This document shows, one piece after another, positions 4,599 through 50,929 of a stretch of 64,000 bases of DNA (position 1 is its first letter; every line of letters starts with the position of its first letter). Below the pieces are notes generated by a model, which worked only from the letters and a program-made list of their open reading frames with translations, had not been told where the DNA came from and did not search any database. Source of the DNA: Escherichia coli (GTDB lineage Bacteria > Pseudomonadota > Gammaproteobacteria > Enterobacterales > Enterobacteriaceae). Where the stretch lies: NCBI RefSeq assembly GCF_046105845.1, contig NZ_CP151004.1; one strand, written 5' to 3'. Both the position numbers and the translations under genes were made by a program.

Positions 4599-5200
4599 GG
4601 ATTCACTCTCATTGTGTCAATAACATGGACCGCCCCGCCTTCATGCGCGGTGCCACCGGAAATAATCGTTTCGTTGATATACGGATAGATCGTGATTTCT
4701 TCGCCAAGATAGCTGGCGGCTCCCACCCAATGCGGGCCGCTGGTCTGCAGATTGATGGACATGCCGATCATGTGACGGCTACATGGTTTGGCATCGCTTA
4801 TCAGTCGCTCAAGTTCCAGATAGGTATCTTCAGTGATGCCCTGGTCCTGCACGCCGATATCCAGGCGAAACGTGCCCGGTGCCTCTCCGGTCTGCCACCA
4901 CTCAATAATGCGGATCAGAAAGCCGAACGGCTCCACCACCCGCCGCACGGCACTGGTGGTCCCTTTATGCTGATGAATATAAAAAGCATCCTTCACTACC
5001 TGGCGTTTGACGCTTTCTGTCCAGCCCTCGTCCCAGCGATCCACAGAGAACGCCCAGGCGAGATAAGGCAGGAAACTGACCGGACAGGTTGCCGGATTCC
5101 ACAAGTCACGCAGCGGCACCTGCAGATCAGAAATCCCGCTGCAGGTTTGCGCCAGTCGGCGCTCCAGTGGCGTTGAACCCGGTGGCAGCAGACTATTCAT
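4595..5200 (-). CDS. I: Baseplate protein (P2 gpI-like)
   Basis: 201-aa ORF in conserved J-I-H order; ...WNPATCPVSFLPYLAWAFSVDRWDE... motif. Confidence 0.8.
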   Translation of the reverse strand: MNSLLPPGSTPLERRLAQTCSGISDLQVPLRDLWNPATCPVSFLPYLAWAFSVDRWDEGWTESVKRQVVKDAFYIHQHKGTTSAVRRVVEPFGFLIRIIEWWQTGEAPGTFRLDIGVQDQGITEDTYLELERLISDAKPCSRHMIGMSINLQTSGPHWVGAASYLGEEITIYPYINETIISGGTAHEGGAVHVIDTMRVNP

Positions 5201-40429: not shown

Positions 40430-41104
40430 ATGAAAACAATCCATGACATCCGGCGGTCTAACGCCAGAAAACTGAGAGATGGTGTTGGCGGAAATTCATC
40501 CTTTGCCACCATGATTGATCGCGAGCCAACCCAAACCAGCAGGTTTATGGGGGATGGCGCTACTAAAAATATCGGTGACAGCATGGCACGGCACATCGAA
40601 AAATGTTTCGACCTGCCTGTCGGATGGCTTGATCAAGAACACCAGACAACGAACATCACAAAAAAACCTGATGTTTCAATCACTAACAAACAAATAACGT
40701 TAGTCCCTGTCATATCATGGGTACAGGCCGGAGCATGGAAAGAAGTTGGCTATTCTGAGGTTGATTTGAGCACAGCAGAAACGTATCCCTGCCCTGTACC
40801 CTGTGGCGAAATGACTTATATCTTGCGGGTGATTGGTGATTCAATGATTGATGAGTACCGCCCTGGAGACATGATTTTTGTTGATCCCGAAGTCCCTGCC
40901 TGCCACGGTGACGACGTTATTGCATTGATGCACGATACAGGCGAAACCACCTTCAAGCGATTGATAGAAGATGGAACACAGCGTTATCTCAAAGCATTAA
41001 ACCCAAACTGGCCTGAGCCTTACATTAAGATTAACGGTAATTGCTCTATAATTGGTACAGTGATTTTCTCGGGAAAACCAAGAAGATACACAATAAAGGC
41101 CTAA
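40430..41104 (+). CDS. CI-type repressor (HTH plus S24 LexA-like peptidase domain)
   Basis: C-terminal ...VISWVQAGAWKEV...LRVIGDSMIDEYRPGDMIFVDPE...TFKRLIEDGTQRYLKALNPNWPEPY... closely parallels the lambda CI C-domain with Ser and Lys catalytic pair. Confidence 0.85.
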   Translation: MKTIHDIRRSNARKLRDGVGGNSSFATMIDREPTQTSRFMGDGATKNIGDSMARHIEKCFDLPVGWLDQEHQTTNITKKPDVSITNKQITLVPVISWVQAGAWKEVGYSEVDLSTAETYPCPVPCGEMTYILRVIGDSMIDEYRPGDMIFVDPEVPACHGDDVIALMHDTGETTFKRLIEDGTQRYLKALNPNWPEPYIKINGNCSIIGTVIFSGKPRRYTIKA

Positions 41105-41140: not shown

Positions 41141-41589
41141 TACTTGACAATGTACCTATGAGATACATAATGTATCCAAAAGAAACATGAGGCAGGCAAG
41201 ATTCAAACAAAATTTGGTTGTAACACGGCGTATGGCACATGCGTCGTTAGCGGTCTGGGGACGTTAAAGGGGACAATCCACTCCTTGCTAGGGCAAACAA
41301 ACCAGGTAGCCGGAATGTGCAAGTCAATGATGATGCTGATAAGACGCCTAACCAGCGTGGCGATCCGGTTTGACGCCTGGGAAGAGACCAGGGTGCAACG
41401 ATGAGGGCATTTATGGAGCCGCGACAAAGTGTGGTGCCGTAACTGGCTAAGTGCTCTCAGCGTTGTGGTCATCCGCGAAATGGCGCGGCGGTAAGTATGG
41501 CTGGGTTACTCTTTCCCCGTTGAGGACACCGGATTGTCAGGTTGACCATACGCCTGAGTGACAACCCCACCACAACAGCCACTGCTTTG

Positions 41590-41635
41590 GCGGTACCAGT
41601 TTGTACACTTGCTTCCGGCTGGTACCGCTCTTTTT
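41590..41635 (+). terminator. Rho-independent terminator-like hairpin in the cI / early-left intergenic region
   Basis: GCGGTACCAG (41590-41599), 19-nt loop, CTGGTACCGC (41619-41628), then TCTTTTT. Confidence 0.5.
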
Positions 41636-41724
41636 ACAAAACAGAGAAGAGCATCACCGGACGACGGGCTCATAACCCAATCCATCCGGGCGGCTGCCAC
41701 CGCAGGTGTTCTTCTCTGTTTTGT
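41636..41724. repeat. Perfect 15-bp inverted repeat with 59-bp spacer
   Basis: ACAAAACAGAGAAGA (41636-41650) and TCTTCTCTGTTTTGT (41710-41724). Confidence 0.6.
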
Positions 41725-41772
41725 GGAGAAACCAACCGACCTTGCAGGGTCGATATGATGAGGAGCAGCAAA

Positions 41773-42135
41773 ATGGCTAGCGAACGCAGTACTGATGTGC
41801 AGGCATTTATCGGGGAGCTGGACGGCGGCGTATTTGAAACCAAAATCGGCGCAGTTCTCAGTGAAGTCGCTTCCGGTGTGATGAACACGAAAACCAAAGG
41901 TAAGGTCTCACTCAACCTGGAAATCGAACCATTTGATGAGAACCGTGTGAAAATCAAACACAAACTCTCATATGTTCGCCCGACTAACCGCGGGAAAATT
42001 TCCGAAGAAGACACCACCGAAACGCCGATGTATGTCAATCGCGGTGGTCGCCTGACTATTCTGCAGGAAGACCAGGGACAATTACTGACTCTTGCCGGTG
42101 AACCTGACGGAAAACTACGCGCAGCAGGTCATTAA
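41773..42135 (+). CDS. YfdP-like early protein (hypothetical)
   Basis: Start at 41773 after an AGGAG RBS, 120 aa; upstream part of ORF track 41542..42135 spans the terminator hairpin. Confidence 0.55.
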   Translation: MASERSTDVQAFIGELDGGVFETKIGAVLSEVASGVMNTKTKGKVSLNLEIEPFDENRVKIKHKLSYVRPTNRGKISEEDTTETPMYVNRGGRLTILQEDQGQLLTLAGEPDGKLRAAGH

Positions 42136-44042: not shown

Positions 44043-44662
44043 TGACCACATTTACCAATAAAGAACTGATTAAAGAAATCAAAGAACGAATCAGCAGCCT
44101 AGAGGTTCGAGACGATATTGAGCGCCGTGCTTATGAAATTGCTCTGGCATCGCTAGAAGAGGAGCCGGTGGCATGGCTGCATTCAGAAAATGGCTTAGGT
44201 ATTCCGGCAATAACGAGGAGTAAAAACATTGCTGACAGTTGGTTATCAAAGGGCTGGTATGTTCAGCCGCTATATATAGCCAAGCCAGTGCCGGTGGTGC
44301 CAGATGCTCGTCCGTCTTTAAATAATGGCATAGTCGGCTTTGATGAAGGCTGGAACGCCTGCCGCGCCGCCATGCTTAATGGTGCCGAACCTGTAAGCCA
44401 GACTTACAAGTTGAACGAGCTGTCGGGCAACTCTCCGGTAACTCCGGATGGTTGGATAAGCTGTAGTGAGCGAATGCCGAACGATAAACAGTATGTTTGG
44501 TGTTGGGGTAAGTCTTACGGCTGGACTGAGTACGATACCTTCGAAGGGTATTACGATTGTTCGAGAAACAAATGGTGGGCAGTTACTGACAATGGGGAAG
44601 AACCGGCATCGAAAGTAACCCACTGGATGCCGCTACCGGAGCCGCCGCAGGAGGTGAAGTAA
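44042..44662 (+). CDS. DUF551-domain protein (YfdT-like)
   Basis: C-terminal ...DGWISCSERMP......THWMPLPEPP typical of DUF551. Confidence 0.7.
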   Translation: MTTFTNKELIKEIKERISSLEVRDDIERRAYEIALASLEEEPVAWLHSENGLGIPAITRSKNIADSWLSKGWYVQPLYIAKPVPVVPDARPSLNNGIVGFDEGWNACRAAMLNGAEPVSQTYKLNELSGNSPVTPDGWISCSERMPNDKQYVWCWGKSYGWTEYDTFEGYYDCSRNKWWAVTDNGEEPASKVTHWMPLPEPPQEVK

Positions 44663-44856
44663 TGAACAACTTAATGACAACTAAACAAGTCGCCGATTTC
44701 TGTGGTGTTTCAGTATCGACAGTTCTTCGCTGGAACAGCGTAAACAGGAGAACTGGCCAGAAATACAGGCCTGACTTTCCAGATCCTGATATTAAATCCT
44801 GCCCAAATAAATGGGCATCACACAAGATTTACAGATTTGCGGGAGTGATTGATTAA
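44662..44856 (+). CDS. AlpA/Xis-like excisionase HTH protein
   Basis: MNNLMTTKQVADFCGVSVSTVLRWNS..., MerR-type HTH, int-proximal. Confidence 0.6.
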   Translation: MNNLMTTKQVADFCGVSVSTVLRWNSVNRRTGQKYRPDFPDPDIKSCPNKWASHKIYRFAGVID

Positions 44857-45138
44857 TATGTATTAGCTTAGATGTGAGCTGACACATCTATGATTAGATG
44901 CCAAACCAAATCTGAGCGTCCACTCTTTAACAAGAGCGGACGTTACCAATGACCATATGACATGAATCGATAAGATCAAAACATTATCGCCAAGAAATGT
45001 CATACCATTGATACAAATAAAATTGATTACCCCCTTACTCTTGTTGAAAAGTTAGTCGTAGAGTACCTATCGCAATGTAATCAGCTTTAATCATCTGAAA
45101 ATTACTCCTTAAAAATTAGCTTTTATATACTGAACAAA

Positions 45139-45858
45139 TTAAATCTCTGTTTCTTTTCCTGTTCGGCTCAACCAATACTCCATTGTTTGAGTATGAATCT
45201 TTTCAGCGTATATTTTATCAATTAATTTATCTCGTTTTTCTTTAATGACTTTACGCAGTGAATCATATAACATAAAAAAACGTTCATCATCTTCCTCATT
45301 ATTACCATAATTTATTTGATTGAGTTCTGAAAAAATATGATAGCACCTTTTTTTCTTGGTCCCCGGCAATATTAAAACCAAGCCACATTGATCATATTCA
45401 AATTCACCTTTATGGGCAGCAAAGTTATGTCTAACATTCATAATAGAATCATGTAAATCTCTGTATTTTTCTGGCACATGCTTTCTCTGCAATGTGAATC
45501 GACGCCCTTTCGCCTCTGTAAAACACTTACCGTAAGTAACAACTTTTGATATAAATAAAGACTTTAATATTAGATTCTTTTCTAAATCAGGATAAATAAA
45601 GTGTTGTTCTCTATTAATGTTATTACAAATGTTTTTTATTATATTCTCCCAACCAATAACATTCCGAAGATCTTTATCCAGCAACTGTAAGGCCACATAT
45701 TGTTCTACAAAGCGGCCTTTTAAAGGTATTCGTGGTAATATTACACCTTTCTGCTTATAAACTCTTTCTATCGTATTATCTGGATATTGGATCTTCCTTA
45801 TTTCTATTCCGTCTTCTTCTGATACCCTTACTAATGGTTCATTTTTTAACTTTGACAT
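45139..45858 (-). CDS. AT-rich hypothetical protein between xis and int (candidate accessory or defence gene)
   Basis: 239-aa ORF in a very AT-rich stretch with GAGGG RBS and ATG at 45856-45858; no motif I recognise. Confidence 0.6.
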   Translation of the reverse strand: MSKLKNEPLVRVSEEDGIEIRKIQYPDNTIERVYKQKGVILPRIPLKGRFVEQYVALQLLDKDLRNVIGWENIIKNICNNINREQHFIYPDLEKNLILKSLFISKVVTYGKCFTEAKGRRFTLQRKHVPEKYRDLHDSIMNVRHNFAAHKGEFEYDQCGLVLILPGTKKKRCYHIFSELNQINYGNNEEDDERFFMLYDSLRKVIKEKRDKLIDKIYAEKIHTQTMEYWLSRTGKETEI

Positions 45859-46143
45859 GTTAACCCTCTTAAATAAAAAACTAACTTTATCCAGATAGTG
45901 TCCGTTAAGAAGTTTTCGTTACAACTAAGTTTCTAGGTAAATCATGAATCAACCTATAGTATCAAAAACATTTGGTGGTAAACATCTGCATTTATCAAAT
46001 AGCAGGAGCGATTTAGGGGCATAGGGATAGTGATGATATCTATACCCGTGCCCTCTTATGTCAACACAATGGCGTAAACTTAACGCTCACATCTCGCTCA
46101 AAGTGTGCTAGGAGATTTGGTTATGTTCAGGTGATACAAACCG

Positions 46144-47367
46144 TCAGTTTGAATCAGAGATAGTACAATTAACAATCGATTCAACCCTCTTCCACCATGC
46201 CAGGTAAGCTTTACGCTGTTCTTCTAGATAATCGCTCTTATCATAAACTTGCCATACCCCTGGCAGCTTATGACCAAGCATAATTTCTGCGATATGAGGC
46301 GCAGTAAGATCAGAAAAATTTGTTCGTGCTGTCCGTCTCAAGTCATGAAGAGACCAATGAGGGAATTGATATCCTAAACGCCGCCACGCGTACTGCATTA
46401 AATTGTAAGGCAGCGACTGTAATGATGTCCTACCGACTGGCTCCCTGCTTCCTTCCTTAGTAAAAAGCATATCGGAACCGTTGTTCATAGAGATAACGTA
46501 TTTTATAAGCTCTTCAACCGGTTCAATAATGGGCCGCTTTAGCGGTTCGCCTGTTATGTCCCCTGTCTTATGTCGTTCAGGTGGTACAGTCCATACCTTA
46601 TTTATGAAATCAAAATCACCCACCCTAGCAGTAATTAGCTCCGAACTACGGCAACCAAAATGCAGTAATAGTTTAATGAAGGCCCGGTATTTGGGAACCA
46701 TTCTAGAGCCATCGATCGCAGCATAAAGAATTTTAATTTCATCGTGTGTCAGAAACCGTTTCTTCTGACCTTTACGGATATCCATATCTTTACCCGTGAT
46801 ATCCGACAGCGGGCGAGTTTCAATAAGCTTTCTCTTATACGCCCAGACATGGGCCTGCTTTGCGTTAATTAGCAATCGGTCTGCTATTGCTGGAGTCTTA
46901 GTGCTAAGAGGCTCCAGGACTTCTAACCAATCATGCAATGTAGCTGCATCGTGAGGGATATTCCCGATTTTAGAGAACAGGTGCAGCTCAAACGAGCGGA
47001 GTATCTGTTCAGAACCCTTTTTATTTTTTACACAATATGCTTCATACCAGGCACGGATCACAGACTCTACCGTCATGGCTTCAGTAGCTTTTCGTTTTTC
47101 AGCCTGCTTGACCAATCGTGGATTACGGTTTGACTCGAGTTCACCACGGAGACGGATAACTTCTTCTCTGGCCTCTTTTAATCCAGTTGCCGGGTAAGTT
47201 CCGATATCAAGACGCTCACCTTTCCCTGCCCATTGATAACGATATTGAAACACTACGCGACCTTTCGGTGATACTCTGACAGACAGACCATCACGATCGG
47301 ATTTAACCAAAACCTTATCACGTTCCTTTCCAACGACTGAACGCAACCACGCATCAGACAGCGCCAT
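46144..47367 (-). CDS. int: Tyrosine integrase (P4-like, arm-binding N-domain)
   Basis: 407 aa; N-terminal ...LSVRVSPKGRVVFQYRYQWAGKGERLDIGTYPATGLKEAREE; C-terminal ...HDLRRTARTNF...IMLGHKLPGVWQVYDKSDY. Confidence 0.9.
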   Translation of the reverse strand: MALSDAWLRSVVGKERDKVLVKSDRDGLSVRVSPKGRVVFQYRYQWAGKGERLDIGTYPATGLKEAREEVIRLRGELESNRNPRLVKQAEKRKATEAMTVESVIRAWYEAYCVKNKKGSEQILRSFELHLFSKIGNIPHDAATLHDWLEVLEPLSTKTPAIADRLLINAKQAHVWAYKRKLIETRPLSDITGKDMDIRKGQKKRFLTHDEIKILYAAIDGSRMVPKYRAFIKLLLHFGCRSSELITARVGDFDFINKVWTVPPERHKTGDITGEPLKRPIIEPVEELIKYVISMNNGSDMLFTKEGSREPVGRTSLQSLPYNLMQYAWRRLGYQFPHWSLHDLRRTARTNFSDLTAPHIAEIMLGHKLPGVWQVYDKSDYLEEQRKAYLAWWKRVESIVNCTISDSN

Positions 47368-47376
47368 TACTCACCT

Positions 47377-47433
47377 TGTACAAATCGCAAAACACCTCTG
47401 CTGCTTTGTACATTATGTACAAGCATATGTACA
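47377..47433. repeat. Cluster of four TGTACA hexamers upstream of int (possible arm or operator sites)
   Basis: TGTACA at 47377, 47407, 47416 and 47428. Confidence 0.4.
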
Positions 47434-47587
47434 GATTTTTGATGAAAGCAACCTGATCGATTTAAAGTTACATGAAAGAATTTTCAATTAAAGAAGCCAC
47501 ATAACTATATGTATTTAAATGAGTTATATAACCAGACCTCAATTAACTGAAAGGATTTTGAAAGAGTAAAAGAGCTTTAATTTGGGA

Positions 47588-47662
47588 TTAATTATTGGGG
47601 TGAGAAATAATGGCAAAAGTGCGGCGCTTCGCCACCTCTTGCAAATAAGGAGACAACGTCAT
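47588..47662 (-). pseudogene. prfC: prfC (peptide chain release factor 3) 5' fragment, truncated at the prophage junction
   Basis: Minus-strand ATG at 47660-47662; [22 protein letters not shown] then NN-stop; the host reading ...HPDAGKTT is lost at ~47597. Confidence 0.8.
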
Positions 47663-47752
47663 AATTCTTTCTTCTTGAGTAAGCGGCATCGCGCCGCGCT
47701 TGTTGAAAACGAAAAATTGCGGCTATTTTACCCATCAACGGGGGGGAGGCAA

Positions 47753-50606: not shown

Positions 50607-50693
50607 GCGAAGGTGGCGGAATTGGTAGACGCGCTAGCTTCAGGTGTTAGTGTCCTTACGGACGTGGGGGTTCAAGTCCCCCCCCTCGCACCA
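50607..50693 (+). tRNA. leuQ: tRNA-Leu (anticodon CAG)
   Basis: GCGAAGGTGGCGGAATTGGTAGACGCG...CTTCAGGTG...GGTTCAAGTCCCCCCCCTCGCACCA; long variable arm; first of three tandem copies. Confidence 0.95.
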
Positions 50694-50721
50694 AAAACCA
50701 CGTTGATATTGCTCGCACTGG

Positions 50722-50808
50722 GCGAAGGTGGCGGAATTGGTAGACGCGCTAGCTTCAGGTGTTAGTGTTCTTACGGACGTGGGGGTTCAAGTCCCCCCCC
50801 TCGCACCA
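50722..50808 (+). tRNA. leuP: tRNA-Leu (anticodon CAG)
   Basis: Second tandem copy, one substitution in the variable arm (GTGTTC vs GTGTCC). Confidence 0.95.
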
Positions 50809-50842
50809 AACGAGGCGATATCAAAAAAAGTAAGATGACTGT

Positions 50843-50929
50843 GCGAAGGTGGCGGAATTGGTAGACGCGCTAGCTTCAGGTGTTAGTGTCCTTACGGACG
50901 TGGGGGTTCAAGTCCCCCCCCTCGCACCA
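50843..50929 (+). tRNA. leuV: tRNA-Leu (anticodon CAG)
   Basis: Third tandem copy, identical to the first. Confidence 0.95.

Follow-up and report, generated by a model that had tools for sequence, protein, structure and literature searches.

The Escherichia coli gene located at positions 45139 to 45858 (- strand, ATG start) in the 64,000 nucleotides analyzed here, designated the window, encodes a 239-aa member of the PHROG 8440 protein family and occupies a true cargo hotspot between the xis-like and integrase (int) genes of a lambdoid prophage. This gene probably has a role in defence or in conflict between elements, and we assign a probability of ~0.5 to the reading that its product is an HEPN-like RNase, expressed in lysogens, that functions as an abortive-infection effector. 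The interpretation as a single-gene phage-defence system is based on the HEPN RNase signature of the family and on its travel with anti-phage genes. The RNase activity, expression in lysogens, activation by a phage and abortive-infection outcome are the components that we infer. The gene thus joins a known class, single-gene HEPN/Abi-like prophage cargo, and is not categorically new.

The prophage in the window matches Escherichia phage 2H10 (Glaedevirus) and is inserted beside yjjG. Phage 2H10 has a 100% identical copy of the 239-aa gene and the surrounding gene order is also shared. A copy with 100% identity is present in a natural lysogen as well, APEC BEN2908 (NZ_LR740776.1). On the + strand, the gene for an S24 cI-like repressor (40430-41104) is followed by genes that encode a DUF2303 protein, a YfdR-like 5′-deoxynucleotidase, two DUF551 proteins and, as the last early-left gene, a 64-aa HTH protein (44662-44856, + strand) with a sub-threshold match to HTH_17, the xis-like gene that forms the left anchor of the slot. 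Between the repressor and the early-left genes, at 41200-41800, there is a stretch with a GC content of ~0.54 in which long ORFs overlap on both strands, for example 41542-42135 on the + strand and 41670-42038 on the - strand. The right anchor of the slot is a tyrosine integrase gene (46144-47367, - strand; Phage_integrase and Arm-DNA-bind_3), and int and the 239-aa ORF, both on the - strand, are separated by a 285-nt spacer. The original prediction positioned the ORF between xis and int, convergent with the early-left operon. The position is borne out, as is the convergence, but it was overlooked that int is on the same strand, directly upstream, and is itself convergent with the early-left genes. 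In all of the sister prophages there is a 69-nt pseudogene fragment (annotated in RefSeq as 'missing C-terminus'; 4961-5029 in sister locus L028) between int and yjjG, in the region that corresponds to 47368-47752 of the window, and this is probably an attachment-site remnant. Within the window, a search for att repeats of ≥13 nt was negative. Outside the prophage, the chromosomal flank has three tandem tRNA-Leu(CAG) genes at 50607-50929, downstream of rimI, holD and rsmC.

The integrase is present in 697 of 5,426 complete E. coli genomes (~13%) and the 239-aa gene in 69-70 of these 697 (~10%), always on the chromosome and always annotated as encoding a 'hypothetical protein'. In sister prophages at yjjG, int is ~95% identical and the early-left end is shared, but the slot is filled by other cargo. 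Homology to these differently loaded sisters ends at ~44890-44950 and restarts shortly beyond the int stop codon, at 46136/46137. These breakpoints delimit a variable cargo cassette of ~1.2 kb (44950-46136; GC content 0.325) that in the window consists of the 239-aa ORF and its flanks. The xis-like gene is outside the cassette and part of the conserved backbone, present also in sister prophages with different cargo, and a 46-aa ORF at 44863-45003 (- strand) is not conserved elsewhere. At least five types of cargo are found between the same breakpoints, among them an AIPR protein (L028; PADLOC AbiU match, E 3e-111), a defence dGTPase (L029; PADLOC, E 8e-105), two small hypothetical genes (L030; 1411-1893 and 1935-2387) and a gene for a 413-aa hypothetical protein (L031; 995-2236). 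The small genes of L030 and the 413-aa gene of L031 have no PADLOC match and are candidates for further defence genes. The slot is therefore polymorphic, and the proposal that this int-proximal position carries lysogenic-conversion or defence genes is supported by the AbiU/AIPR and dGTPase cargo of the sisters. A small locus, with conserved phage genes on both sides and with a turnover of cargo that includes defence genes, has the features of an antiviral hotspot. As in the hotspots described by Rousset et al. 2022 (PMC9122126), ~1-2 kb between conserved phage genes has a high cargo turnover, and the cargo also includes known defence systems. Those hotspots are cos-proximal in P2 and P4, whereas the slot described here is in a Glaedevirus-type lambdoid prophage at yjjG, between the xis-like gene and int.

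The 239-aa ORF is a genuine gene under selection. At the base composition of the ORF, the computed likelihood of 239 codons without a stop by chance is ~1e-10. Comparisons with the Cronobacter and Leclercia orthologues, which are 83-85% identical, gave dN/dS values of 0.05-0.12, as expected of a protein maintained by purifying selection. A Shine-Dalgarno sequence, AAGAGGG (45864-45870, - strand), is positioned 5 nt before the ATG and is retained in both of these orthologues, in which the TTTAAGAGG block at the RBS is invariant, and so the good RBS reported initially for this ORF is confirmed. So is the markedly AT-rich DNA: the ORF has a GC content of 0.312 (GC3 of 0.254) versus ~45% in its flanks, 0.446 in int, 0.466 in the early-left genes and 0.485 in the window overall. 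Upstream, a leader of ~175 nt (45859-46035, - strand) moves with the gene, as it can be aligned between E. coli and Cronobacter despite the presence of a different upstream gene in Cronobacter. The sigma-70-like candidates in this leader, of which TTTACC-15-TGaTACTAT at 45956-45982 is one, are weak; neither a convincing promoter nor a terminator for the 239-aa gene was found, and there is no terminator-like hairpin. In the 3′-flank, conservation ends beyond ~40 nt and the sequence does not travel with the gene. The encoded protein, of ~28 kDa, is basic, with 43 lysine plus arginine versus 35 aspartate plus glutamate residues, and is cytoplasmic, as its hydrophobic stretches never exceed 7 residues.

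PHROG 8440, a family with no function assigned in PHROG, matches the 239-aa protein from end to end. The gene was considered initially to be an orphan, incorrectly, as there are at least 498 representatives of the family (clusters at 50% identity) at E ≤ 1e-3, and a search from a Vibrio member added 307 clusters. All members are ~225-250 aa, none has been named, and they are present in Escherichia, Salmonella, Cronobacter, Yersinia, Vibrio, Aeromonas, Pseudomonas and other genera. Conservation was calculated over 101 diverse representatives. In these, D63, Y109, R119, H136 and R143 are invariant, H149 is 99% conserved, and H149, K111, F113, W70 and G151 are each conserved in ≥95%. The original prediction recognized no motif in this protein; the family does have one, R[H/N]x4H. 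The R143-H-N-F-A-A-H149 codons (45412-45432, - strand) encode an R-x5-H sequence of the HEPN-type Rx4-6H that is present in 100 of the 101 representatives, with H (57), N (43) or D (1) as the residue that follows the motif R. HEPN superfamily proteins are characterized by an Rx4-6H motif and by a polar residue, mostly N, D or H, immediately after the R (PMC3710099), and PHROG 8440 proteins have both. Within these proteins, conservation is highest in the catalytic segment and lowest in the N-terminal domain, a hairpin and the C-terminus, and a conserved core with a variable periphery is the pattern expected of a conserved effector with a diversifying sensor.

The AF2 model of the 239-aa protein (pLDDT 85.9, pTM 0.75) predicts a four-helix bundle, with helices at residues 49-79, 92-111, 130-147 and 188-221, to which a small N-terminal beta domain (~9-47) and a beta-hairpin insert (156-181) are added. 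In this model, helix 3 (130-147) has R143 close to its end, H149 opens the loop toward helix 4, and there is a conserved insert (112-129) between helices 2 and 3. Around the motif (residues 141-150), the pLDDT is only ~74. This predicted layout agrees with the HEPN layout described in PMC3710099. With the N-terminal beta domain, Foldseek returned small viral proteins, aligned over 34-39 columns with probabilities of 0.97-0.99 and non-significant E values of 0.5-0.9. These matches, which include a Tudor-domain phage protein, hint at an SH3/Tudor-like module but are too short to trust.

Members of the family are found in many different locations. In V. proteolyticus (L016, 1-9947), the family gene is a cassette in a chromosomal integron with ~13 attC/VCR-like repeats, and the cassette that follows it encodes an FRG-domain PDC-S15 defence candidate. 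In V. cholerae, family genes occur in shuffled superintegron contexts, among toxin-antitoxin cassettes. In other Proteobacteria, the neighbors include LmuB/Lamassu (E 1e-150), PDC-M54A, Ppl/PDC-M49A-like, PDC-S15 and an HNH gene. In every context the family member is a single gene, and the neighbors vary between contexts. Searches around family members for a partner gene, an antitoxin or an sRNA/Rfam family found none. These contexts bear on the reading, which we consider very unlikely, that the gene serves as a selfish toxin or addiction element, stabilizing mobile elements such as prophage ends and integron arrays, and has no anti-phage role. The company of toxin-antitoxin cassettes in V. 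cholerae would fit such a role, HEPN domains are common toxins (PMC3710099), and an HEPN AbiU2-domain integron cassette from V. mimicus, HNPBCG_15845, that protects against T4 and T7, could not be cloned alone by the authors of that screen (bioRxiv 10.64898/2026.03.17.712381). HNPBCG_15845 may or may not belong to PHROG 8440. Against a toxin, there is no conserved partner or antitoxin, and so not the conserved adjacent antitoxin gene of a type II toxin-antitoxin system; the flanks vary by host, with members present as single-gene integron cassettes, and there is neither an Rfam RNA nor conserved downstream sequence. Furthermore, the exact sequence of the E. coli protein is present on at least 1,000 contigs, and 604 member sequences make up its 90% cluster, which implies that the protein is tolerated alone.

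Enterobacter, Citrobacter and Yersinia have P2/186-like prophages in which the family gene is directly after int, as the last gene before the chromosome, and either overlaps int by 17-20 nt or starts within 35 nt of it. Four more int-adjacent P2/186-like cases were found in IMG/VR. In phages 186 and P2, int and the repressor gene are co-transcribed from the lysogenic promoter and so, by analogy, family genes that overlap the int stop codon would be expressed in lysogens. In lambdoid prophages of Cronobacter, umuDC and the tail-fibre genes precede the family gene. A phage-like plasmid of E. coli has it with the lysis cassette on one side and the HNH/terminase genes on the other, and a Vibrio inovirus (PQ189351) carries it as cargo. 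The inovirus has a further gene on the same strand after the family member (L001, 6738-7844) that encodes a 368-aa protein with no PADLOC match and, being absent from every other context, this is probably unrelated cargo. Among sequenced phage isolates the family is rare, being present in 2H10 and the one inovirus. A copy in an IMG/VR sequence (L053, 1510-2226) that tblastn presented as a '65% identical' allele was rejected as such; its DNA is 99.6% identical with a frameshift mid-gene, and it is either a pseudogene or the result of a sequencing error.

The repeated location next to int, downstream and on the same strand in two unrelated phage types, and the late-operon slot in one element, the phage-like plasmid, are consistent with an accessory gene of some other benefit to the phage, through counter-defence, control of lysogeny or help to the integrase. 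We regard such a function as improbable. Many family members, among them the inovirus copy, the integron cassettes and those in defence islands, have no integrase close by. Sister prophages whose int is the same do without the gene, and its neighbors in bacterial genomes are defence genes rather than phage genes.

Searches of Pfam, NCBIfam and PADLOC with the 239-aa protein returned nothing significant, and a match to Tcp10_C (E 0.01) was discounted as noise. PADLOC-DB v2.0.0 (2023) has no model that recognizes the protein, and the 101 family members gave scattered single matches to this database with E > 1e-3. Weak matches to PF18734 (HEPN_AbiU2) were obtained with 5 of the 101 members, the best with an E value of 0.0022 and all below the gathering threshold, and no other Pfam family was matched by more than two members. 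The 239-aa protein itself has no match to the PF18734 model, and when the family consensus was compared with Pfam, AbiU2 was not recovered, and the only matches were low-complexity coiled-coil noise. PDB sequences were searched with profiles of the entire family and of its 65-residue catalytic core, and neither profile found a match. Foldseek searches of PDB and BFVD with the AF2 model gave no significant match, and no peptide of the 239-aa protein was found in the DefensePredictor supplementary tables examined. There is, therefore, no significant profile or sequence similarity to a recognized HEPN family in Pfam, NCBIfam, PADLOC or the PDB. Two other assignments were considered for the conserved residues and rejected, an HD domain at H136-D137, as D137 is not conserved, and a tyrosine-recombinase-like catalytic set, as the residues are in the wrong order for it. 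The remote-homology and structure searches that accompanied the original prediction as suggestions thus revealed no routine phage function and, instead, an HEPN-like signature and defence-island neighbors.

This absence of a significant HEPN profile match would be in keeping with a protein that provides defence or superinfection exclusion without HEPN RNase action, and the hotspot and defence-island context fits such a protein equally well. The helical bundle might, for example, bind and block a phage component, or might act on DNA or nucleotides through its H/R/Y/D constellation. Four of the invariant residues, D63, Y109, R119 and H136, are outside the canonical HEPN description and could signify a different chemistry, and the depositor's note on the Vibrio inovirus homologue (PQ189351) reads 'endonuclease'. 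On balance, we consider it unlikely that the protein works in this way, and the HEPN-like RNase is the reading retained below.

The closest functional analogue of the 239-aa protein is Tha, from S. aureus prophages such as 80alpha, an HEPN RNase encoded beside int that is triggered by tail proteins; a gene annotated as xis is convergent with tha, and the gene for the inhibitor, Ith, overlaps tha (PMC11087260). There is, however, no detectable sequence homology (hhalign versus Tha-1, probability 0.3), the motif is Rx4H in Tha but Rx5H in PHROG 8440, and tha is upstream of int whereas the 239-aa gene is downstream. Neither homology to Tha nor a small inhibitor gene that travels with the family was found. 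The xis-like gene was considered as a cognate, Ith-like inhibitor gene and rejected, as it belongs to the conserved backbone and does not vary together with the cargo. Proteins of the AbiU2 type (PF18734) are similar in being standalone bacterial HEPN proteins, with a link to abortive infection and a presence in integron cassettes, but differ in that the PF18734 model matches neither the 239-aa protein nor the PHROG 8440 consensus. HNPBCG_15845, which is of this type and, like Tha, a precedent for the HEPN reading, and 'Esos', from V. cholerae N16961, are HEPN-like single-gene defence cassettes described in two integron studies. Members of the family from V. cholerae have low contig counts, which suggests that PHROG 8440 is absent from N16961, and Esos is then probably a different protein. 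Other known systems close to this one are the HEPN protein Vpc_cass2 from an integron cassette (PDB 3jrt) and the HEPN-MNT toxins (PDB 7ae2).

Taken as an HEPN-like RNase, the 239-aa protein would be the product of a self-contained accessory ('moron') cassette in the cargo hotspot of a 2H10-type lambdoid prophage. Its core would be an HEPN-like four-helix bundle, with a putative active site formed by R143 and H149, probably together with H136, R119, Y109 and D63. The lysogen would make the protein and hold it inactive until activated by an infecting phage, perhaps by way of its hairpin or its variable N-terminal beta domain. The activated protein would then cut RNA of the cell or of the phage, with no need for a metal cofactor, and this cleavage would stop translation and abort the infection. 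As an outcome, the lysogen population and the resident prophage would be protected from competing phages.

More tentatively, and with rather less confidence than in the reading above, PHROG 8440 might constitute an unrecognized clade of HEPN-like nucleases, with an enlarged invariant constellation, an N-terminal beta domain and a hairpin, that act as one-protein sensor-effectors spread by cassettes. If so, these proteins would directly recognize a conserved phage component, with both the trigger and the RNA target being new, and they would represent a streamlined cassette that has spread over integrons, inoviruses, P2-like and lambdoid prophages and the defence islands of Proteobacteria. The 239-aa gene is readily testable, being small, standalone and available from an inducible phage, 2H10. 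Confirmation of its function would provide a name and a role for a widespread family of 'hypothetical proteins' that is overlooked by current defence finders. It would also establish the slot between xis and int in E. coli prophages that integrate at yjjG as an anchor-gene hotspot, one that can be mined for more defence genes, such as those in the cargo of L030 and L031.
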